Assembly (NCBI GenBank): GCA_041737385.1
Contig: JBGSRU010000002.1
Span: forward strand, 269,437-333,436
Reading direction: 5' to 3'
DNA: 64,000 bases
From: Candidatus Saccharimonadales bacterium
GTDB lineage: Bacteria; Patescibacteriota; Saccharimonadia; Saccharimonadales; SZUA-47
Shown: in pieces, positions 2,770 to 63,314 of the stretch
Layout: the number at the start of each line of letters is the position of its first letter
How positions within the stretch are numbered: position 1 is the stretch's first letter
Made by a program: the position numbers and the translations under genes
The notes under the pieces: model-generated
What the model was told of the DNA's origin: nothing
Databases searched by the model: none
What the model saw: the letters and a program-made list of their open reading frames with translations, nothing else

Positions 2770-3369
2770 CTACTTTGTTAGTTTGTTTACGAAAGAGTTT
2801 TTGACTTGCAAAGTGGCTGCAAGTAATCCTAGCTTATAAAGTGAAAAAATAATTAGTATACTGCTCACTAGGTTTAGCAATAGCGATATATCTCTTAAAA
2901 ATGCACCTGATGTTGCGCCAAATGTTACTGCAATTGGTGTGAGAAGTGAAGTGCCGCATGCCACGCAGCCACCACTTATAACTGCAAAGACAAGTCCAGC
3001 GCCACTAGTACCTGATTTTTTAGCCATATCTTTAAGTCCTATGTTGCTAAGAACATAGCTGAAAAGAGCAATATTAATGCCGAAAAGTACAGAAAATATC
3101 GCTATACCTAGTGCTTGTGTACTCTCATAAGTAGTGAAGATATCTCTCACCGACGAGCTGAAGAAATATAACTTATCTGCAATATTTAAACTTTGTTCAC
3201 GAAGTATGTACTGAGCTAACTCTAGGTTCAAAGACCAAATAATAAGGTTTGCTGATATAAATATAACAATGATAGAAATTGCGAAATATTTAGGGTGTCT
3301 CATAACTCTGAGCATTGCGATTGTTGATACTTTTAGCTTCAACAGCAAAATCTGTAGGTTCTGCTTCAC
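2770..3369 (-). CDS. Polytopic membrane protein with an intramembrane CxxC (GGCVACG)
   Basis: Several hydrophobic segments, with the motif SGGCVACGTSLL inside one of them. It lies 2 nt downstream of the DsbA-like gene on the same strand. Confidence 0.5.
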   Translation of the reverse strand: MKQNLQILLLKLKVSTIAMLRVMRHPKYFAISIIVIFISANLIIWSLNLELAQYILREQSLNIADKLYFFSSSVRDIFTTYESTQALGIAIFSVLFGINIALFSYVLSNIGLKDMAKKSGTSGAGLVFAVISGGCVACGTSLLTPIAVTFGATSGAFLRDISLLLNLVSSILIIFSLYKLGLLAATLQVKNSFVNKLTK

Positions 3370-3371
3370 AA

Positions 3372-4082
3372 CTACTGAGCCTTCAGCTGAATATCTATAA
3401 GGGTTTTGAATGTCGTAAAGTTAGTTGGCCCAGTTATTTTTTGGTCGCCTATAACAAAACCAGGGGTGCCGGTAACTTCATCCTCTGCGCCTAATAATAG
3501 ATCAGCATCAATATAGCGGTTATAGTCTGTCGCGGCTATACATGACTCGAAAAGTACAACATCCTCTAGATCGCTGCCGATGATTTCTACTATTTTTTCT
3601 GAAGTGAATATATCACGAAATTCAGCAGGGAGGTCTCCAACATTATAATGATTATCCCAGAGATAGTTGTACAGTTTGTCATGATATTGTGTGAAAACAC
3701 CTTGATCATTTGCGCAATACGAACCTCGTGCTGTTCTACCGGAGTCTGGGCCAATAAATGGATAGTTTCTAAACTCTATATTTACTATGCCATCATCAAT
3801 GTATTGTTCACGTAACTGCGCACCAGCTTGATGATGAAACGAATTACATGAAGGACACTTAAAGTCTGCGTATTCAACAATTGTCACTTTAGCTTCTGGA
3901 CTCCCGATTAGAAGTTTAGGTTTATTTTCTATGTCTGCGTTTTCAATAATAGTTTTGTCTTGAGTAACTTCTGTAGGAGCTATAGTTGCTGTGTCAGTTC
4001 GTACTTCAGTTGGTGCTGTGAAGAGAAACAGTAAGAATAATCCGACGAGTAGGGTAGTGAAGCCAACGATAAACTTGTACAT
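3372..4082 (-). CDS. DsbA-family thiol:disulfide oxidoreductase (exported thioredoxin fold)
   Basis: N-terminal signal/anchor (FIVGFTTLLVGLFLLFLF), an active-site FKCPSCNSFH (CPSC) motif and a C-terminal GTPGFVIG motif typical of DsbA-like thioredoxins. Confidence 0.8.
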   Translation of the reverse strand: MYKFIVGFTTLLVGLFLLFLFTAPTEVRTDTATIAPTEVTQDKTIIENADIENKPKLLIGSPEAKVTIVEYADFKCPSCNSFHHQAGAQLREQYIDDGIVNIEFRNYPFIGPDSGRTARGSYCANDQGVFTQYHDKLYNYLWDNHYNVGDLPAEFRDIFTSEKIVEIIGSDLEDVVLFESCIAATDYNRYIDADLLLGAEDEVTGTPGFVIGDQKITGPTNFTTFKTLIDIQLKAQ

Positions 4083-55470: not shown

Positions 55471-57699
55471 ATGAATTTAAGCGATAACGAAAAACGAGAT
55501 GTAATTAAATATCTAGAGGCTGGCAAGCCCCTGCCAGAGAAATATCGTTTTTTGTTATTTGATGACGCTCGCGAAGTTGAATTACTGTGGAATGGCAAGA
55601 CTAATGAAGTTACAAATACCGTCCTACCATTCCAAGTTATTGAACAGATTGATGAGCCACGGAGTGACGACAAAATTGGACTACAATCAACATTGTTTGA
55701 CGATAGCGGTAGACAGTTAACAGGTTGGACTAACAAGTTAATATGGGGCGATAACAAGCTAATTTTGTCATCCCTGAGTAATGGCCCATTTCGTAAAGAA
55801 ATTGAAGCTCAAGGCGGATTAAAGCTGATATATATTGACCCGCCTTTTGATGTTGGTGCAGATTTTTCAATGGATATATCAATTGGAGAAAGCCAAGACG
55901 AACAAAGTTTTACAAAGAAACCGTCCGTCATTGAAGAGATTGCATATCGTGACACTTGGGGTAAGGGTGCTGACAGCTTCATATCAATGGTGTATGAACG
56001 CCTAAAATTAATGCATGATTTACTGGCTGAAAACGGTAGTATATATGTTCATTGTGACTGGAGAGTAAATGGTTACATGCGTCTAGTGCTAGACGAAATC
56101 TTTGGTAAAGATAATTTTTTGAATGAGATTTTATGGAAAAGAAGAACAAACACAGTAAAAGCTATATCAAATAAATTTCAAATCAATACAGATACAATCT
56201 TCGTTTATACGAAGTCAAAGGGGAGCTATCAGTTTAATCTTCAGTATGGAGAGTATCCGAAAGAATATCTAGATAGGTTTAAGTACGAAGATGAAAAAGG
56301 TAAATTCAGGTGGCAAGTAATGGCTACATACTCAGAGGCAAGGCTAGCTTCTCTACAAAGAGAAGACAAAGTTAGATTTTCAAAGGGTGCAAAATATCCC
56401 GAGTTCAAGCAGTATGTATACGAATTAAAAGGTAAGCCCATAGAGAATGTTTGGGATGATTTAAACATGATAAATGCTATGGGAGATGAAAGACTCGGCT
56501 ATGCTACCCAGAAGCCTGAAGTGCTACTTGAAAGAATTATCAAGGCGTCGTCAAATGAGGGTGACTTAGTCGCTGACTTCTTCTGTGGTTCAGGAACAAC
56601 CATGGCTGTAGCTGAAAAATTAAATAGAAAATGGATAGGCTCGGACCTAGGCAAGTTTGGCGTCCATACTTCTCGGAAGCGAATGATTGATGTACAGCGT
56701 AAGTTAAAAAAAGACGGTGTTAACTTCAGAGCTTTTGAAATATTAAATGTCGGTAGATATGAACGAGATAGCTACTTAAATGTTAATGACGACTTGCGTG
56801 TCGAAGAAAAGGCCCAGCAAGCTATAAGAAAAGAAAAAGAGTTTGTTAAGCTAATTATTACAGCATACAAGGCAGAGCCTGTTGAGTCGTTTGTAAACAT
56901 TGTTGGGAAGAAAAGAGATAGGTTAGTAGCAGTTGGTCCAATTAGTACGCCTGTTTCGTCTAAGCAAGTGGACGATATAGTAGCTGAGTGTAAAGACAAA
57001 GGCATTACAAAGGTTGACATACTTGGGTTTGACTACGAAATGGGATTAGATTTTCATGCATACGCCAGTCAAGGCATAGATGTTGCATTTAGGATAATAC
57101 CAAGGGAAGTGTTTGATAAAAAAGCTGTGGAGCGAGGACATGTTAAGTTCTACGATGTTGCTTTTATTGAAGCTAAACCAACCGTTAAAGGTCCGATGAA
57201 TAAGAAAGAAGTATCAATAGAATTGACCGACTTCTCCGTTTTTTATAATCAAGATGACTCCGGCGAAGTTGCAGAGGCATTACGCCCCGGCGGAGAAAAG
57301 GTCATTGTAGAAAACGGCCAAGTAGTAAAAGTTTCAAAAGATAAAGAGAGCGATATTATCTCAAAAGAAGTACTAACCAAAAAATGGAGCGACTGGGTTG
57401 ACTATTGGGCTGTGGACTTTGACTTTTCAAGCCGAAAAGAAATGATTAGAGTACCAAAAACTCATGGAGATAATCTATTTGAAAAAGGTAAAGTTCAGGA
57501 ATTGCTTGAGTTTGAAGATGTGTGGACTGGAGACTACATATTTGATAACGAATGGCAGAGTTTTAGGACAAAAAAGAACAGAGAGCTTGAACTGACCTCA
57601 GCGGCAAAAGAAGTTGGGCGAGGCAAATATAAAGTAGCAATCAAAGTTGTAGACATATTTGGTAATGACACTACTCGGGTTATTGAGGTAGAGGTATAG
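55471..57699 (+). CDS. mod: Type III restriction-modification DNA methyltransferase (Mod, N6-adenine/N4-cytosine beta class)
   Basis: Motif IV LIYIDPPFD precedes motif I DFFCGSGTTMAVAEKLNRKWIGSDL. The N-terminal EKYRFLLF...LIWGDNKL region is typical of type III Mod proteins. It lies directly upstream of res. Confidence 0.85.
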   Translation: MNLSDNEKRDVIKYLEAGKPLPEKYRFLLFDDAREVELLWNGKTNEVTNTVLPFQVIEQIDEPRSDDKIGLQSTLFDDSGRQLTGWTNKLIWGDNKLILSSLSNGPFRKEIEAQGGLKLIYIDPPFDVGADFSMDISIGESQDEQSFTKKPSVIEEIAYRDTWGKGADSFISMVYERLKLMHDLLAENGSIYVHCDWRVNGYMRLVLDEIFGKDNFLNEILWKRRTNTVKAISNKFQINTDTIFVYTKSKGSYQFNLQYGEYPKEYLDRFKYEDEKGKFRWQVMATYSEARLASLQREDKVRFSKGAKYPEFKQYVYELKGKPIENVWDDLNMINAMGDERLGYATQKPEVLLERIIKASSNEGDLVADFFCGSGTTMAVAEKLNRKWIGSDLGKFGVHTSRKRMIDVQRKLKKDGVNFRAFEILNVGRYERDSYLNVNDDLRVEEKAQQAIRKEKEFVKLIITAYKAEPVESFVNIVGKKRDRLVAVGPISTPVSSKQVDDIVAECKDKGITKVDILGFDYEMGLDFHAYASQGIDVAFRIIPREVFDKKAVERGHVKFYDVAFIEAKPTVKGPMNKKEVSIELTDFSVFYNQDDSGEVAEALRPGGEKVIVENGQVVKVSKDKESDIISKEVLTKKWSDWVDYWAVDFDFSSRKEMIRVPKTHGDNLFEKGKVQELLEFEDVWTGDYIFDNEWQSFRTKKNRELELTSAAKEVGRGKYKVAIKVVDIFGNDTTRVIEVEV

Positions 57700-57700
57700 C

Positions 57701-60391
57701 ATGGCTCTACATAAAGACTTTCCAACAGACCCTTACGCTATATTAGACCCAAGTATTCGCTGGTTTCCCGCTGATGAAGATTTGAGGGACAAGGGGCACG
57801 AGAAGCTACTCCCACCACTTGTTGCTGACTTGCGAAAAAAAGTTAAGGAATGGCGACTGCTCAATTATGAGGGTGCAAGTGATACATCTATTGCACTGCT
57901 AAACTGGTGGTTCAAAGAAGACCATATTCAATACAATCAAGACGGCTCTTCGTACATTTTTAGATACTACTTTGCACAGCGTGAAGCACTTGAAACAGTT
58001 GTCTGGCTTTACGAAGTTGCTAAGGTAAAAGATAAGTACGACCTCATACGATACAACTCCACTGGTGTGCTAAGTGCAGGCATGTTTACAGAGGAATGGC
58101 TTCGGTTCGTAATCAAGATGGCTACTGGTGCTGGAAAGACAAAAGTCATGAGCCTTGTGCTCGCATGGGCTTACTTTCACAAAAAATATGAGGAAGACTC
58201 ACAACTGTCAAAGAACTTCCTCTTAATTGCCCCCAATGTGATTGTGTTTGAGCGTATAAAGAATGACTTTGAGGGATTGAAGATATTCCATGAAGACCCT
58301 GTACTTCCTGATAATGGCTATCGTGGTCAGAATTGGCAGGATGACTTCCAACTCACGCTTCACTTACAAGACAATCTACGGAACATTTCTGACACGGGCA
58401 ACATCTTCCTTACTAACATACATCGTGTGTTCGAGTCGGATGTTAAGAACGCCAGTGCTGATGACGAAGACTCATCGACCTATTTCTTAGGCGACAAGCC
58501 TGTGACTAAAACAAATGACTCAACAGTTGACCTAGGAATGATAGTTAGAGATATTGATGAGTTGATTGTTATCAATGATGAAGCTCATCATATATGGGAC
58601 GAAAAGTTAGCATGGGCAAAGTCAATTCAAGATATAGACAACCAGTTAAAGCAAAAGGGCTCAGGGTTATCACTACAGCTTGATGTTACGGCTACACCAA
58701 AGAAGCGAGACGGTTCAATCTTTGTACAGACAATTAGTGACTACCCTCTTGTCGAGGCAATACACCAACAGATTGTTAAAAACCCTGTTGTGCCTGACGC
58801 CGCAAGTCGGGGTAAGTTACATGAAAACCAAAGCTCACTGTTTAGTGAAAAATATAGAGACTTTATTAACCTTGGTATTGAAGAGTGGCGTAAAACCTAC
58901 GATGAATTGAAGCCTATGGGCAAGAAGTCAATCTTGTTCATAATGACAGATGACACTAAGAACTGTGATGAAGTAGCAGAATATATCAGAACTAGCTTTG
59001 CTGATTTGCGAGACGGCGTACTAACTATTCATACCAATAAGAGTGGCGATATCTCAGAAAGCGTTTCAGGAAAGAACAAAGACGAGCTAGATATACTCCG
59101 TAAGCAAGCTAACGAGATTGATAGTTGGGAAAGCCCATTCAAAGTAATCATTTCTGTAATGATGTTGAAAGAGGGTTGGGATGTTAAGAATGTAACTACT
59201 ATTGTTGGACTAAGGCCATATGCCGCTGACTCTAAAATCTTACCCGAACAAACACTTGGTCGTGGTTTGCGTAGAATGTTCTTTGGTCGAGATGATGTAA
59301 AAGAATATGTCAGCGTAGTTGGTACGCCAGCCTTTATGGAGTTCGTGGAGTCAATCAAGGGCGAGGGCGTTATCTTAGAAAAGAAAGCCATGGGCACAGG
59401 CTCTAAGCCAATAGCACCTATGGTTGTTGAGGTAGACAGCGAAAATCCACAAAAAGATATTGAAAAGCTAGATATTGAAATACCAATCATGACTCCAAGA
59501 ATACAGCGGGAGTACAAGAACCTTTCTGACTTAGATGTATCAAAGTTTGGTAACAAAAAAGTTTCAATAAAAACATTTACTGAGCAAGAAAAGCGAGAGA
59601 TTGTTTTCAAGGATGTTGTTGGCGAAAACGAACATCACACTACTGTACTTAGTGGCGAGATAAACCCTGACTACCAAAGCGTGATTGGCTTCTTCGCACA
59701 AGCGATTATGCGAGAGCTAAGACTGTTTGGTTGCTATGACATTTTGTTTGGCAAGGTCAGAGAATTCGTGCACCAGTATATGTTTGAGAACGAAGTTGAG
59801 CTGTCTGATTTGAACATGCTCAGAAACCTATCCGAAGTTGAGTATATTCATCTGATAAAAGACTCGTTCAAAAAAGCAATCAACGAACTAACGGTTCAAG
59901 ATAGTGGCGATACCGAGATAAAGAACTATATCAAGATAAGTGAGTCACGCCCATTCGTCGTGAATGACAAGGGTTTCGTTGTACCTAAAAAGTCAGTCTT
60001 CAATAAAATTGTCGGCGATAGCGATTTTGAGCTAGTGTTTGCTGGCTTTATAGAGGGATGTGAGGATGTTATTTCGTTTACCAAGAACTTCCAAAACAAA
60101 GAAGCTAGTGCCCTGCGAATTGAGTATAAAAACTCTGAGGGCTTCATAGCTAACTACTACCCTGACTTCTTTGTAAAAACTGATAGCAAAACGGTCTATA
60201 TAATTGAAACTAAGGGTCGTGAAGAAGAAGATGACAAGCTAAAATTTGAGCGTCTAAAAAAGTGGTGTGATGATGTTAATGACCGCCAAAGCAAAATGGC
60301 CTATAATGCTCTCTACATAAAACAAGAAGAATGGAATAGAGACAGACTAAAGAGCTTCGATGAGGTTGTCCGAGTATTTGGAGATAAGTAG
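57701..60391 (+). CDS. res: Type III restriction endonuclease Res subunit (SF2 helicase plus PD-(D/E)XK nuclease)
   Basis: Walker A MATGAGKT, DEAHH, MLKEGWDV and the C-terminal YYPDFFV...YIIETKG nuclease motif. It starts 1 nt after the mod stop. Confidence 0.85.
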   Translation: MALHKDFPTDPYAILDPSIRWFPADEDLRDKGHEKLLPPLVADLRKKVKEWRLLNYEGASDTSIALLNWWFKEDHIQYNQDGSSYIFRYYFAQREALETVVWLYEVAKVKDKYDLIRYNSTGVLSAGMFTEEWLRFVIKMATGAGKTKVMSLVLAWAYFHKKYEEDSQLSKNFLLIAPNVIVFERIKNDFEGLKIFHEDPVLPDNGYRGQNWQDDFQLTLHLQDNLRNISDTGNIFLTNIHRVFESDVKNASADDEDSSTYFLGDKPVTKTNDSTVDLGMIVRDIDELIVINDEAHHIWDEKLAWAKSIQDIDNQLKQKGSGLSLQLDVTATPKKRDGSIFVQTISDYPLVEAIHQQIVKNPVVPDAASRGKLHENQSSLFSEKYRDFINLGIEEWRKTYDELKPMGKKSILFIMTDDTKNCDEVAEYIRTSFADLRDGVLTIHTNKSGDISESVSGKNKDELDILRKQANEIDSWESPFKVIISVMMLKEGWDVKNVTTIVGLRPYAADSKILPEQTLGRGLRRMFFGRDDVKEYVSVVGTPAFMEFVESIKGEGVILEKKAMGTGSKPIAPMVVEVDSENPQKDIEKLDIEIPIMTPRIQREYKNLSDLDVSKFGNKKVSIKTFTEQEKREIVFKDVVGENEHHTTVLSGEINPDYQSVIGFFAQAIMRELRLFGCYDILFGKVREFVHQYMFENEVELSDLNMLRNLSEVEYIHLIKDSFKKAINELTVQDSGDTEIKNYIKISESRPFVVNDKGFVVPKKSVFNKIVGDSDFELVFAGFIEGCEDVISFTKNFQNKEASALRIEYKNSEGFIANYYPDFFVKTDSKTVYIIETKGREEEDDKLKFERLKKWCDDVNDRQSKMAYNALYIKQEEWNRDRLKSFDEVVRVFGDK

Positions 60392-60969
60392 TGGATGACC
60401 TAGAGTTGTCCGCTAATGTATTCCACGAACAAGCTGTACAGGCTTATGTGTCCTCTAGAATGTTGCTGGCTACTACCTCGTTATTCCCAGTAGGTTTGTA
60501 TAGCGCGCATCTAGCATGTGAATGTATGTTGAAATCATTAACTGCTCAGTCAGGCTCACATCCTGTGCAGAAGCACGATTTATTAATGCTGAACACTAAC
60601 TTGCAGATAGCAATAAATGACAATGATTTATTAGGACAAGAATATATACGAATACTTACTTGGCTCAATCCATATAGTGAGCTAGGTAGGTATGGTGCTT
60701 TAGCAAGGCCACAAAATGATCCCGATAGAGTTATATCAGGACCAGTACAAGTAAGAGGTGCTGTATCATCACAACCGTCGGGTGATATGAAAGATATAGA
60801 TTTTGTTTTCACTCTGTTAAGAAGTATATCAACGGTTGAAAATGATATAATAAGTAAAATTGTTGCTGGCAAAACAGTCAGAGGCTGGAACTCATCTGTT
60901 TCCATCGAGGAAGTAGTGCTGGCGCATAACAAATATACTAATCTTCTCAATAAATCAACAGGGATCTAA
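60391..60969 (+). CDS. HEPN-domain-like protein coupled to res
   Basis: The GTG start overlaps the res TAG by 1 nt. The pattern AHLACECMLKSL...VQKHDLLML...YSELGRYG fits the HEPN helix arrangement (A.E..LK.L...H.L..L......RY). Confidence 0.5.
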   Translation: MDDLELSANVFHEQAVQAYVSSRMLLATTSLFPVGLYSAHLACECMLKSLTAQSGSHPVQKHDLLMLNTNLQIAINDNDLLGQEYIRILTWLNPYSELGRYGALARPQNDPDRVISGPVQVRGAVSSQPSGDMKDIDFVFTLLRSISTVENDIISKIVAGKTVRGWNSSVSIEEVVLAHNKYTNLLNKSTGI

Positions 60970-61008: not shown

Positions 61009-61034
61009 AATAAGAGGCTACGCAGCCTCTTATT
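61009..61034. terminator. Bidirectional terminator hairpin between convergent genes
   Basis: AATAAGAGGCT-acgc-AGCCTCTTATT, an 11-bp stem with A/T-rich flanks on both sides. Confidence 0.55.
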
Positions 61035-61167: not shown

Positions 61168-61383
61168 TTACACTGTGTGGCAGTTAGTGCAGAATGCGCA
61201 ACCATCAATCACTGCCTGACTATATCTAAGTCTGGCTTCATTAACCGCAAGTGCACAGTTAGCATGAAAGCCTAGATCTATGCGATGCTCTGGCAATGGG
61301 TACGTACACTGATTCGTATGTTGAGTATCATGAACTTCATGATGACCGTTATATTCTTGCGAGTTTAATACGTAAAATGGCAT
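61168..61383 (-). CDS. Small Cys/His-rich protein, function unknown
   Basis: 71 aa with HHEVH, C..LP, and C and C..C.H at the C-terminus, suggesting metal binding. It resembles a widespread uncharacterised small-protein family (from memory). Confidence 0.45.
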   Translation of the reverse strand: MPFYVLNSQEYNGHHEVHDTQHTNQCTYPLPEHRIDLGFHANCALAVNEARLRYSQAVIDGCAFCTNCHTV

Positions 61384-61618
61384 ATTGTCTCCTTTCTTGA
61401 TTTTACAGTCTTTTTATACCCTCGTGACTGTTTAACGATGTTTGTGTTCCAGAAGCTTTTATTCTTCGTTGTTTCTTGTTTTATATTGTATCAAAATAAT
61501 TAGACAATAACTCCTTATATTACGATTTTAAACATTGTAATATTGACATATTTGACATTGCTCGTTATACTTCCCAGCAAGCATAACGAGCAAAATTATT
61601 AAAAGACGGGCAACTATT

Positions 61619-62395
61619 ATGACTTTTCCACAAATTATTCGAAAATTAAGAGCAGATAACAGCTTAAGCCAGCAGGATCTTGCTGACTACGTTGATATTG
61701 CTCGCGCAACCTATGTTGGCTTGGAGAACGGTCGACGTGACCCGAATTTGAGCGAAATTAAGGCAATTGCCGAGTACTATCAAATATCGCCCCAGGAATT
61801 AATTGACGGGAAGTTGACTGATAAGAAGGCTCCTGCTGTAGTCATTCTCGAATCTAACACAGCCGAACTAACACAAGTTGTTAATCTCAACAAAGAAAAG
61901 TTTAGAGAAGTAGTTCTGTATATACTCAACAAAGTAGGCGCCAAACCTAATGTGGGCGAAACTGTGTTATATAAGCTATTGTACTTTATTGACTTTGATT
62001 ATTACGAGCAAAAAAATACATCTATAACGGGTATGCAGTATGTGAAAAATCACTTCGGTCCGACTCCAAGAAAGAGGGATTTTGACGCAATTATAGATGC
62101 AATGAGCGCTCAAAAAGAAATCGAATTAATCAAAACAAAATATGCAACAAAAGATCAAAAAAAGTACCTCCCAGCAAAGAGCCCTCAACTTACTAATTTG
62201 AGTGCAGATGAGATTAAGCATATCGACGAAGTACTTAGCAGATTAAGCGACAAAAACGCCACAGAGCTATCTGACCTGTCCCACAGGGATATGCCATGGA
62301 TAGCATCAGACCCAAACGAGGTTATAGATTACGACCTTGTTTTTTACCGTACACCAGTAACAGCTAGAAGTAACAGCAGCGATGATCCCCTTTGA
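61619..62395 (+). CDS. XRE-family HTH fused to a Panacea (DUF4065/SocA-like) antitoxin domain
   Basis: N-terminal IIRKLRADNSLSQQDLADYVDIARATYVGLENGRRDP HTH. The central KLLYFIDFDYYEQKNTSITGMQYVKNHFGPTP is typical of DUF4065. Confidence 0.7.
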   Translation: MTFPQIIRKLRADNSLSQQDLADYVDIARATYVGLENGRRDPNLSEIKAIAEYYQISPQELIDGKLTDKKAPAVVILESNTAELTQVVNLNKEKFREVVLYILNKVGAKPNVGETVLYKLLYFIDFDYYEQKNTSITGMQYVKNHFGPTPRKRDFDAIIDAMSAQKEIELIKTKYATKDQKKYLPAKSPQLTNLSADEIKHIDEVLSRLSDKNATELSDLSHRDMPWIASDPNEVIDYDLVFYRTPVTARSNSSDDPL

Positions 62396-62774
62396 TCAGG
62401 CACCTGAGTTTGAGAAAGAATTAAAAAAGCTTTCTAAAAAATGGCGATCTCTACCTACGGATTTAATTCGTGCCCAGAGAGTTATATCCGGTATATATGA
62501 GCCTCAGCGAGGCGTTTCTGCTTCTGAAATTAAAAGTGAGTTTTTTGCAGGCAACAATGTGACTCAGATAAAAATAGCTGATAGTTATGAAGTGGTAAAA
62601 ATGCGACTGTATTGCAAGGATCTTCGGACAGATAAAATGATTAGAATCGTGTTTATTTTTATAAAAACTCATGACCAAATTCTGCTGATTGAAATGTATG
62701 CTCACAACGATAAAAGCAGAGAAGATGATTATCGTATAGATAAATACTCCAAGAAAATCGAGACAGACATATGA
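62382..62774 (+). CDS. Putative toxin partner of the Panacea antitoxin (RelE/ParE-superfamily-like, weak)
   Basis: It overlaps the antitoxin gene by 14 nt. It is 130 aa. EFEKELKKLSKKW...RIVFIFIKTHDQILLIEMYAHNDKSRED resembles the RelE/ParE-type toxin layout. Confidence 0.45.
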   Translation: MIPFDQAPEFEKELKKLSKKWRSLPTDLIRAQRVISGIYEPQRGVSASEIKSEFFAGNNVTQIKIADSYEVVKMRLYCKDLRTDKMIRIVFIFIKTHDQILLIEMYAHNDKSREDDYRIDKYSKKIETDI

Positions 62775-63187
62775 AAAATTGGTGGTTATACGTTTTAAGA
62801 CTAGAGCAAGGGAAGTACTACGTTGGTATCACTTCTCAAACACCTGAGATACGGATGCAAGAGCATGTTGATGGAGTACGCGGTGCGTACTGGACAAAGC
62901 AGTACAAGCCTATAGAAATTTTCTACAAAGAACAAATTGGTGCAATGGAAAAAGCAGATGCAGAGAAAATAGAAAATGTTTCAGTTAGAAAATACATGAA
63001 ACAGTTTGGTTTAAATAATGTTAGAGGCGGGGACCTGACTGGAAACCTAACAGTTTCAAAAACTGGTGAATACTCGAAATTTTTTGGCTATATTTATATG
63101 AAGCGTGAACTAGACGCAGCTAAATTCATATACTTTTTGATTTTTTGTATGCTTGTTATGTTTTTCCTTGGTCGCCTTTCAGCATAA
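62771..63187 (+). CDS. GIY-YIG nuclease-domain protein with a C-terminal TM segment
   Basis: WWLYVLRLEQGKYYVGIT...R..EH...E...NVRGG motifs. A hydrophobic tail FIYFLIFCMLVMFFLG. An ATGA overlap with the upstream toxin gene. Confidence 0.65.
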   Translation: MKNWWLYVLRLEQGKYYVGITSQTPEIRMQEHVDGVRGAYWTKQYKPIEIFYKEQIGAMEKADAEKIENVSVRKYMKQFGLNNVRGGDLTGNLTVSKTGEYSKFFGYIYMKRELDAAKFIYFLIFCMLVMFFLGRLSA

Positions 63188-63285: not shown

Positions 63286-63314
63286 TTGACATATTATATA
63301 TAAAGTAATATAAT
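63286..63314 (+). promoter_or_regulatory. Consensus sigma70 promoter of the terminal methyltransferase gene
   Basis: TTGACA (63286-63291), a 17-nt spacer, then TATAAT (63309-63314). ATG 63324 lies 9 nt downstream. Confidence 0.6.

Follow-up and report, generated by a model that had tools for sequence, protein, structure and literature searches.

The locus at positions 61619-63187 of a 64-kb stretch of Candidatus Saccharimonadales bacterium DNA (contig JBGSRU010000002.1; "the window" hereafter means this whole stretch) carries three + strand open reading frames (ORFs), termed here panA (gene 1), panT (gene 2) and a GIY-YIG nuclease gene ending in a transmembrane helix (gene 3). With a probability of about 0.8, panA and panT constitute a bicistronic type II toxin-antitoxin (TA) module of the PanAT kind, and the GIY-YIG gene that follows is unrelated and evolves separately. 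Among loci found through gene 2 homologs, a toxin-anchored sample that is unbiased regarding gene 3, none of the 12 distinct PanA-toxin loci has a GIY-YIG gene in the downstream sequence covered (0.9-5 kb), and the GIY-YIG family itself follows at least 12 unrelated modules, mostly defence systems. An earlier note on this DNA had described the same three genes, with panA overlapping panT by 14 nt and panT overlapping gene 3 by 4 nt (ATGA), and the ORF list matches that description exactly. The note had also taken the three genes for a tripartite module, and this claim fails, given that the toxin-anchored loci carry neither a GIY-YIG gene nor any recurrent third gene.

The panA-panT pair

Gene 1 had been described as an XRE-type helix-turn-helix (HTH) fused to a Panacea (DUF4065) antitoxin domain, and both domains are recovered by Pfam above their cutoffs. 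HTH_3 occupies aa 7-61 (nt 61637-61801; E 3.7e-14, 52.9 bits, cutoff 23). SocA_Panacea/DUF4065 (PF13274) occupies aa 117-227 (nt 61967-62299; E 2.6e-19, 70.6 bits, cutoff 25.7), and the match spans positions 1-112 of the 113 in the profile; the protein ends in a 31-aa C-terminal tail. The identification of gene 1 as a putative XRE-HTH and Panacea (PanA-type) antitoxin is supported. Kurata et al. (2022, PMC8832971) found N-terminal HTH domains in 343 PanAs. Furthermore, PanA is probably an autorepressor. The candidate operator in front of panA is an inverted repeat (Table 1) with arms of 15 nt each (61558-61572 and 61579-61593) that are 14/15 complementary (93%), and its score of 12 lies above all 100 shuffles (mean 6.1, maximum 9).

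The conserved unit is the panA-panT two-gene pair. In 10/10 toxin-anchored reference-genome loci a full-length HTH-Panacea gene, 45-54% identical, abuts or overlaps the toxin start. Full-length copies also lie 5' of the toxin in L019, L086/87, L012/14 and L041 (L-numbers denote the retrieved relative loci or contigs), and partial copies in L051 and L075, which are contig-truncated. The HTH-Panacea gene, full-length or contig-truncated, is thus found immediately 5' of the toxin homolog in 18/18 distinct relatives from different metagenome-assembled genomes (MAGs), and wherever the contig of a relative reaches far enough, the full-length PanA homologs are 45-70% identical to the PanA of the window. 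The gene 2 homologs in ten genomes come from nine Ca. Saccharibacteria MAGs and one MAG labelled Gammaproteobacteria. Downstream of the 12 toxin-anchored pairs no recurrent third gene was seen, and the gaps there are mostly >100 nt. On the toxin tree, pairs linked to a GIY-YIG gene occur in at least three separate places, and the closest relatives of the window toxin, L086/87 (61% identity) and L019 (56%), are without one. These comparisons indicate that gene 3 is not a component of the panAT module and would be a separately evolving gene.

The second gene has no above-threshold match in Pfam, NCBIfam or PADLOC. Its family comprises 37 clusters in the word-indexed database and 390 representatives at 50% identity in an exhaustive profile search; no Pfam model covers it, ten distant members are also without a Pfam match, and no matches to it were found in the viral contigs scanned. 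Homologs are numerous for gene 2 and gene 3 alike (37 and >150 clusters, respectively), and all three ORFs, each with many homologs, are genuine genes.

The AlphaFold2 model of PanT (predicted local distance difference test, pLDDT, 88.6; predicted TM-score, pTM, 0.84) has a RelE-type fold, in which a four-stranded sheet comes after the N-terminal helices. The best Foldseek matches in the PDB were Vibrio cholerae HigB2 (8a0x_C), Pyrococcus horikoshii RelE (1wmi_A), Thermus thermophilus RelE (2khe) and Escherichia coli YafQ (4ml0_B), with probabilities of 0.91-1.0; for RelE 1wmi_A the probability was 1.0 and the target-normalised TM-score 0.71. Weak matches to PF06296 (RelE) were present in 21 of the 37 family members and were the commonest weak Pfam match. 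A broad profile of 96 family sequences, searched against PDB sequences, gave V. cholerae HigB-2 as all of its best five matches, with an alignment that spans the K.R...R.IY...Y.KN core. Because of the Foldseek matches, the weak PF06296 matches and the HigB-2 profile alignment, gene 2 is placed in the RelE superfamily, nearest HigB-2, as a divergent protein of predicted HigB-2/RelE fold and a predicted toxin. The residues that are invariant in the family alignment include K15, W21, R22, S23, D27, Y39, E70, K73, R75, R88, E104, K111, R113, E114, D115 and R118; from K73 onwards they lie on the sheet and the C-terminal helix of the model and are mostly basic or acidic.

The earlier note had seen a faint RelE/ParE resemblance in the 130-aa protein and had raised the possibility of a new toxin type. 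The profile and structure comparison that it proposed upholds the resemblance at the level of fold (Foldseek), with the Pfam RelE threshold left unreached. The novelty does not stand, given the HigB-2/RelE fold and the HTH-PanA pairs with a HigB-2-like partner already present in Kurata et al. (2022), to which the present pair is likened by description. Their Dataset S1 gives toxin cluster T14 (HHpred HigB-2 99.73%) as the partner of HTH-PanA in Ca. Saccharimonas aalborgensis and TM7 HOT_356, with the antitoxin gene first, an 11-nt overlap and every entry marked untested (Kurata et al., 2022, PMC8832971). The panAT genes would thus be a bicistronic type II module of an already catalogued PanAT kind.

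The module can be expected to work as follows. PanA dimers would occupy, through their HTH, the inverted repeat that overlaps the -10 box and thereby repress their own operon, and the Panacea domain, together with linker and tail, would bind and neutralise PanT, as suggested by the family. Panacea can neutralise directly, or it can leave neutralisation to other domains and serve as a scaffold or sensor (Ernits et al., 2023 PNAS). Loss, depletion or triggering of PanA (e.g., by phage infection) would free PanT, and PanT, to judge by its fold, its conserved residues and the analogy with HigB-2 and RelE, would be a ribosome-dependent mRNA endonuclease that cleaves ribosome-bound mRNA and arrests translation. 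The product of gene 3 would be made from the panAT transcript through ATGA translational coupling, by position alone; the gene is a member of a family found at the 3' edge of defence islands in Saccharimonadales.

The GIY-YIG and transmembrane helix family

The description of gene 3 in the earlier note, as an ATGA-overlapped GIY-YIG gene with a C-terminal transmembrane helix, is confirmed by Pfam, hydropathy, the AlphaFold2 model and conservation. The Pfam GIY-YIG match covers aa 3-75 (E 1e-7, 32.5 bits against a cutoff of 22.6), the catalytic core extends over roughly aa 3-89, and the fold is supported by both AlphaFold2 and Foldseek. The nearest structures are the UPF0213 proteins BH0048 (1zg2) and EF2693 (1ywl), then UvrC-N and I-TevI. 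Kyte-Doolittle hydropathy over 19 residues peaks at 2.26 (aa 116-134, nt 63116-63172), and the model (pLDDT 87) has a high-confidence helix at 111-137. The C-terminal hydrophobic segment is aligned in 39/39 family members, all with a hydropathy maximum of >=2.0, which lies <=15 residues from the C-terminus in 37 of them. Hydropathy, model and conservation agree, and the transmembrane helix is real. The family comprises >150 clusters of 130-140 aa, including two NCBI-named homologs from Ca. Saccharimonadales MAGs, and the invariant residues of 39 sequences are Y7, Y17, G19, R28, H32, E68, N82 and R85-G86-G87. No description of this family was found in the literature covered.

Outside the family, giant-virus GIY-YIG proteins of ~200 aa come closest to the core of gene 3 (aa 5-89), at 36-47% identity, and they abound on giant-virus contigs (L092-L171: IMG/VR, mostly giant-virus MAGs). 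Those proteins carry extensions of ~110 aa; the core of gene 3 is followed by just ~25 residues and the transmembrane helix, without a DNA-binding domain. Since a hydrophobic or transmembrane segment was found in 0/80 of these giant-virus relatives, the membrane anchor is specific to the GIY-YIG and transmembrane helix family. The positive charges before the helix and the 4-residue tail after it suggest that the catalytic domain faces the cytoplasm. Nuclease activity and membrane insertion would be expected of such a protein.

The surroundings of the family were compared in 66 metagenomic loci retrieved via gene 3, ~50 of them clear family members, plus several contigs obtained by exact look-up. 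The 5' neighbours include type III Res (10 loci), methyltransferase-Res-HEPN and RhuM+Res; AAA_13 alone, AAA_13+DUF2130, SMC/AAA_21+DUF2130+82 aa and CTD1-MComp1-SMC+82 aa; AAA_13+GmrSD, EcoRI methylase+GmrSD-HNH and MazG-like+SLFN helicase; reverse transcriptase+305 aa and Fic; PanA with the HigB-2-like toxin and PanA with an unrelated 140-aa protein; and, rarely, ABC transporters or a G5 protein. The 5' gene is on the same strand in 37/42 non-redundant loci and <=50 nt away in 27, the median gap being 10 nt. In PADLOC (E < 1e-5; upstream positions -1 to -3), 82 upstream neighbours match 364 families, against 15 families, each matched by just one protein, for 58 downstream neighbours. Defence genes are enriched 5', not 3', of the GIY-YIG genes of this family. 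Among the genes found 3' are metK and rpsF-ssb-rpsR, and in the L052-L064 clade the order Res-GIY-metK is stably syntenic.

Where loci differ in their upstream modules, the nucleotide homology that they share begins at the GIY-YIG ATG. L025 and L028 are 88.5% identical with an offset of 0 from this ATG; L031, with AAA_13+GmrSD upstream, and L051, with PanAT upstream, are 81.7% identical, also with an offset of 0; L021 and L022 are 88.6% identical with an offset of +2; and the offsets of the window against L012-14, L031, L090 and L091 are -2 to 0. A restriction-modification (RM) and HEPN block that lies 5' of panA in the window is 79.4% identical in nucleotides, over 4.4 kb, to L049 (616-4953), where the GIY-YIG gene directly follows HEPN after a 3-nt gap. 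Despite this, the GIY-YIG proteins of the window and L049 are only 42% identical, and the closest relatives of the window protein (71%) are the PanAT-linked copies in L012-14. In L014, 11 initial codons of a gene of this family survive as a remnant (3660-3707; MKNWWLYVLRL) that then runs out of register to a stop. The remnant has its own ribosome-binding site and lies directly after an FtsK-like gene, just 5' of the PanA-toxin-GIY block; the block has apparently landed in a resident GIY-YIG locus, leaving a scar. The homology boundaries, the mismatch with L049 and the L014 remnant together imply that the GIY-YIG gene and its 5' neighbours have separate histories, with the 5' end of the GIY-YIG gene as a recurrent junction.

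At the other end, homology in one clade runs 190-220 nt beyond the GIY-YIG stop and then ends though the contigs continue, and in L017, L025 and L028 the DNA is unrelated on both sides of the GIY-YIG homology block. A conserved non-coding tail of ~200-220 nt after the stop is present in L017 (5417-5638), L021, L022, L024, L025 and L028, and absent from the window. As an RNA gene this tail was rejected: neither the gathering threshold nor a permissive E-value gave an Rfam match, and its consensus fold is weak (-9 kcal/mol, 2 compensatory pairs).

The role of gene 3 admits several accounts, among which an island-edge resident, recombination-prone or selfish gene ranks above a generic defence accessory, and that in turn above a specific third TA component. 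The first would make it either a selfish or recombination-prone promoterless unit of ~0.6 kb, akin to free-standing GIY-YIG homing endonucleases, that inserts or recombines at operon 3' ends, or a conserved, single-copy resident gene that serves as a recombination arm for swapping 5' defence cassettes. The blocks bounded by the ATG and the tail, the L014 remnant, the giant-virus core relatives and the Foldseek match to I-TevI all favour this. So do two convergent, abutting copies in L065 (2793-3047, +, and 3058-3371, -), of which the second is frameshift-broken. It is nevertheless an unlikely account, if the best placed of these, as a transmembrane helix stands in place of a DNA-binding domain, a single copy occurs both on a 973-kb contig and in the 64-kb window, the Res-GIY-metK order is stable in its clade, and terminal repeats or target-site duplications were not found.

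A generic accessory or effector shared between defence systems, namely a membrane-tethered, cytoplasm-facing nuclease that cuts, for example, incoming DNA, would explain why the gene ends many different defence operons. It would fit the one-sided defence association, the same-strand neighbours at gaps that leave no space for a promoter of its own, the invariant catalytic residues, and a transmembrane tail conserved in the family and absent from 80/80 giant-virus relatives. The argument is one of guilt by association throughout, however, and no PADLOC model matches gene 3 apart from a weak UzuA match (E 0.01). ABC transporters or a G5-domain protein precede some members, 5/42 have an opposite-strand neighbour, and GIY-YIG similarity is uncoupled from the partner system. 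This account is correspondingly doubtful and is placed below the previous one.

A broader, tentative proposal, which probably goes further than the truth, is that these genes form an undescribed class: a promoterless, membrane-tethered nuclease that ends Saccharimonadales defence islands whatever lies 5' of it, and that acts either as a common effector or 'gatekeeper' at DNA entry or as a recombination arm or nuclease driving defence-cassette exchange in naturally competent, genome-reduced bacteria.

Counter-evidence and genomic setting

Several observations weigh against a PanAT module with an unrelated third gene, and they concern first the toxin. Gene 2 does not reach the gathering threshold of the Pfam RelE model, and its family members get no further than E 2.4e-4, which is under the cutoff; the Foldseek E-values of PanT are only 4e-3 to 3e-2; and the profile link to HigB-2 is marginal at E 0.005, with a narrow family profile reaching HigB-2 at E 0.78. 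The equation of the gene 2 family with T14 is drawn solely from the published description of T14. A comparably strong operator repeat was absent 5' of panA in the relatives, where none exceeded the shuffled controls. On the sub-threshold Pfam score, gene 2 might be an inactive or non-toxic RelE-fold protein (e.g., a co-repressor), and the pair a regulatory rather than a TA module. This is improbable, for the basic residues K73, R75, R88, K111, R113 and R118 are strongly conserved on the beta-sheet and C-terminal helix, within the region that aligns to the HigB-2 core, and the pair has the canonical antitoxin-toxin order with an overlap and lies in defence or TA islands.

The remaining counter-evidence concerns gene 3 and its possible tie to the pair. 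Since gene 3 overlaps panT in ATGA and an internal promoter is lacking, it is probably co-transcribed with panAT in this genome, and its expression here would depend on the TA promoter. A strong internal promoter was not predicted by the scan, the best internal match (9/12) lying within panA; neither a strong promoter nor a terminator-like site was predicted between panT and gene 3, or a terminator-like site after gene 3; and a minimal 5-bp stem within panT (62501-62513) is the operon's sole + strand terminator-like match. The predicted promoter ahead of the downstream gene (Table 1) would mark the end of the panAT-GIY transcription unit. Gene 3 is, then, unlinked from the pair in the toxin-anchored relatives (0/12), though not, as far as these signals indicate, independently transcribed in the window.

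The PanA-toxin-GIY order also recurs in L012-14, L051 and, with a 340-nt gap, L041, and L091 has PanA with a different toxin followed by a gene of the GIY-YIG and transmembrane helix family. The three-gene blocks of L012 and L014 are 86% identical in nucleotides in different upstream contexts, from which it follows that the panA, panT and GIY-YIG genes can travel together; a functional link may exist in some lineages. In L091 (3831-5420), an HTH-Panacea gene and a 140-aa protein are followed 2 nt on by the GIY-YIG gene, so that a second PanAT type occupies the same position; membership of this 140-aa protein in the PanT family was ruled out (hhalign probability 0.2%). Immediately 5' of the L012 block lies a CBASS-type oligonucleotide cyclase (2924-3658; SMODS; PADLOC Cyclase E 2.4e-84), with no obvious effector gene between the two.

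A true tripartite system would have gene 3 as a functional third component, either as a second effector released or activated on loss of PanA or as a partner of the toxin. The shared promoter and overlap, the recurrent gene order and the L012/L014 blocks speak for it, as do accessory third genes, including nucleases, reported for some PanAT clusters by Kurata et al. (2022, PMC8832971). It is nonetheless the least probable of the alternatives, contradicted by the absence of gene 3 from the toxin-anchored relatives, the polyphyly of GIY-linked pairs on the toxin tree, the variety of modules that the family follows, the decoupling of GIY-YIG similarity from the 5' gene (L031 and L051, 82% nucleotide identity in the GIY-YIG gene, with AAA_13/GmrSD and PanAT upstream, respectively) and the lack of the string 'GIY' in the part of the Kurata et al. 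supplement searched (PMC8832971). The co-occurrence of these GIY-YIG proteins with PanA-type loci, proposed for checking by the earlier note, accordingly holds for some loci, where the PanA-toxin-GIY order is found, and not for most genes of the family, which follow other modules.

For the preferred reading, a PanAT module followed by a separately evolving gene, the wider setting supplies context. The window encodes DinB, PheS and DUF711 further left, then a type III RM operon with a HEPN gene as third cistron, and the RM-HEPN genes and the panAT pair form a defence island 5' of gene 3 (Table 1). The 79% nucleotide identity to L049 suggests recent horizontal transfer of the RM and HEPN cassette between Saccharibacteria. 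No clear foreign-DNA signal was seen in base composition across the locus, and no extra copies or remnants of GIY-YIG, PanA or toxin genes were found in the window. A homolog of the divergent 71-aa ORF, 56% identical, has the corresponding position in L075 (617-829), where it is flanked by a GIY-YIG gene and panA. In L014, L015 and L091 the defence cluster has on its left a gene of the FtsK family or with an FtsK_gamma domain, and such a gene may be the opposite boundary of the island bounded on the right by the GIY-YIG gene. In L052 (2148-2217, -), an Rfam DUF3800-IX RNA motif (55.4 bits, E 4.8e-9) lies just 5' of type III Res, the gene ahead of GIY-YIG.

Table 1. Features of the locus and its surroundings (window coordinates)
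Feature	Position	Strand	Details and source
Type III RM operon, N6_N4 methyltransferase	55471-57699	+	Pfam, PADLOC
Type III RM operon, Res subunit	57701-60391	+	Pfam, PADLOC
HEPN gene, third cistron	60391-60969	+	192 aa; overlaps Res; Pfam, PADLOC
Hairpin terminator of the 71-aa ORF	61009-61034		Terminator scan
Cys/His-rich ORF divergent from panA	61168-61383	-	71 aa; strong AGGAG ribosome-binding site; no Pfam match
Predicted sigma-70-like promoter 5' of panA	61543-61571	+	TTGACA, 17-nt spacer, TATACT; 11/12 consensus matches
Inverted repeat, candidate operator for the PanA HTH	61558-61593		TTGCTCGTTATACTT-6 nt-AAGCATAACGAGCAA; overlaps the -10 hexamer
Gene 1, panA	61619-62395	+	258 aa; ORF list, Pfam
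Gene 2, panT	62382-62774	+	130 aa; ORF list, AlphaFold2/Foldseek
Gene 3, GIY-YIG with C-terminal transmembrane helix	62771-63187	+	138 aa; ORF list, Pfam
Sigma-70 promoter ahead of the downstream SAM-methyltransferase gene	63286-63314		TTGACA-17-TATAAT; perfect, 12/12

Comparison with known systems

The pair is closest to the described PanAT systems (Kurata et al., 2022; Ernits et al., 2023), especially HTH-PanA/T14. Compared by description, the two share the HTH and Panacea antitoxin, a small HigB-2-like partner, the antitoxin-toxin order, a short overlap, Ca. Saccharibacteria hosts and conservation of the pair across species. In the multidomain PanAs studied so far, neutralisation is by domains other than Panacea (Ernits et al., 2023 PNAS). 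As a TA pair the locus adds little: it is one more putative PanAT member and would be a convenient test case for HTH-Panacea against a HigB-2-type mRNase.

With V. cholerae HigB-2 and the RelE and YafQ mRNases (PF06296, RelE/ParE superfamily), PanT shares the predicted fold and conserved basic residues, and its core motif aligns to HigB-2. However, it is only ~12-15% identical to them, scores below the Pfam gathering threshold and has an additional helix, the third (aa 47-56), and its C-terminal helix (aa 116-129) is long. It is paired with PanA instead of HigA or RelB, and its gene stands in the reverse order to that of higBA. Three-component TA systems (paaR-paaA-parE, TA-chaperone and mazEF-mazG) likewise have a third gene in the operon, but theirs is conserved with the pair, whereas gene 3 is absent from 12/12 toxin-anchored relatives and common to unrelated systems.

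Gene 3 shares its fold and the full catalytic residue set with UPF0213/YhbQ, the I-TevI catalytic domain, UvrC-N and the giant-virus GIY-YIG proteins, and differs from them in that the transmembrane helix replaces any DNA-binding domain. Free-standing GIY-YIG homing endonucleases likewise differ from gene 3, which is without a sequence-specific DNA-binding domain. Unlike other small GIY-YIG proteins, the gene 3 family is, as far as seen, restricted to Saccharimonadales and fixed at the 3' ends of defence operons.

The more interesting lead is that this family marks the 3' edge of defence islands across Saccharibacteria. Immunity in bacteria of the Candidate Phyla Radiation (CPR), which depend on DNA uptake, is poorly understood, and a functional basis for the pattern, if there is one, would suggest that these organisms have a shared effector or a mechanism of cassette exchange. 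Even without it, the gene offers a practical landmark in the search for new defence systems in Saccharibacteria genomes.

Defence-island hotspots bounded by conserved genes occur in Pseudomonas, E. coli and Vibrio. The arrangement here resembles them in that variable defence cargo lies beside a conserved flank and homology resumes at that flank. It differs in that the flank is a nuclease gene without promoter space of its own and co-oriented with the cargo, and in that the 3' side is not syntenic across lineages.

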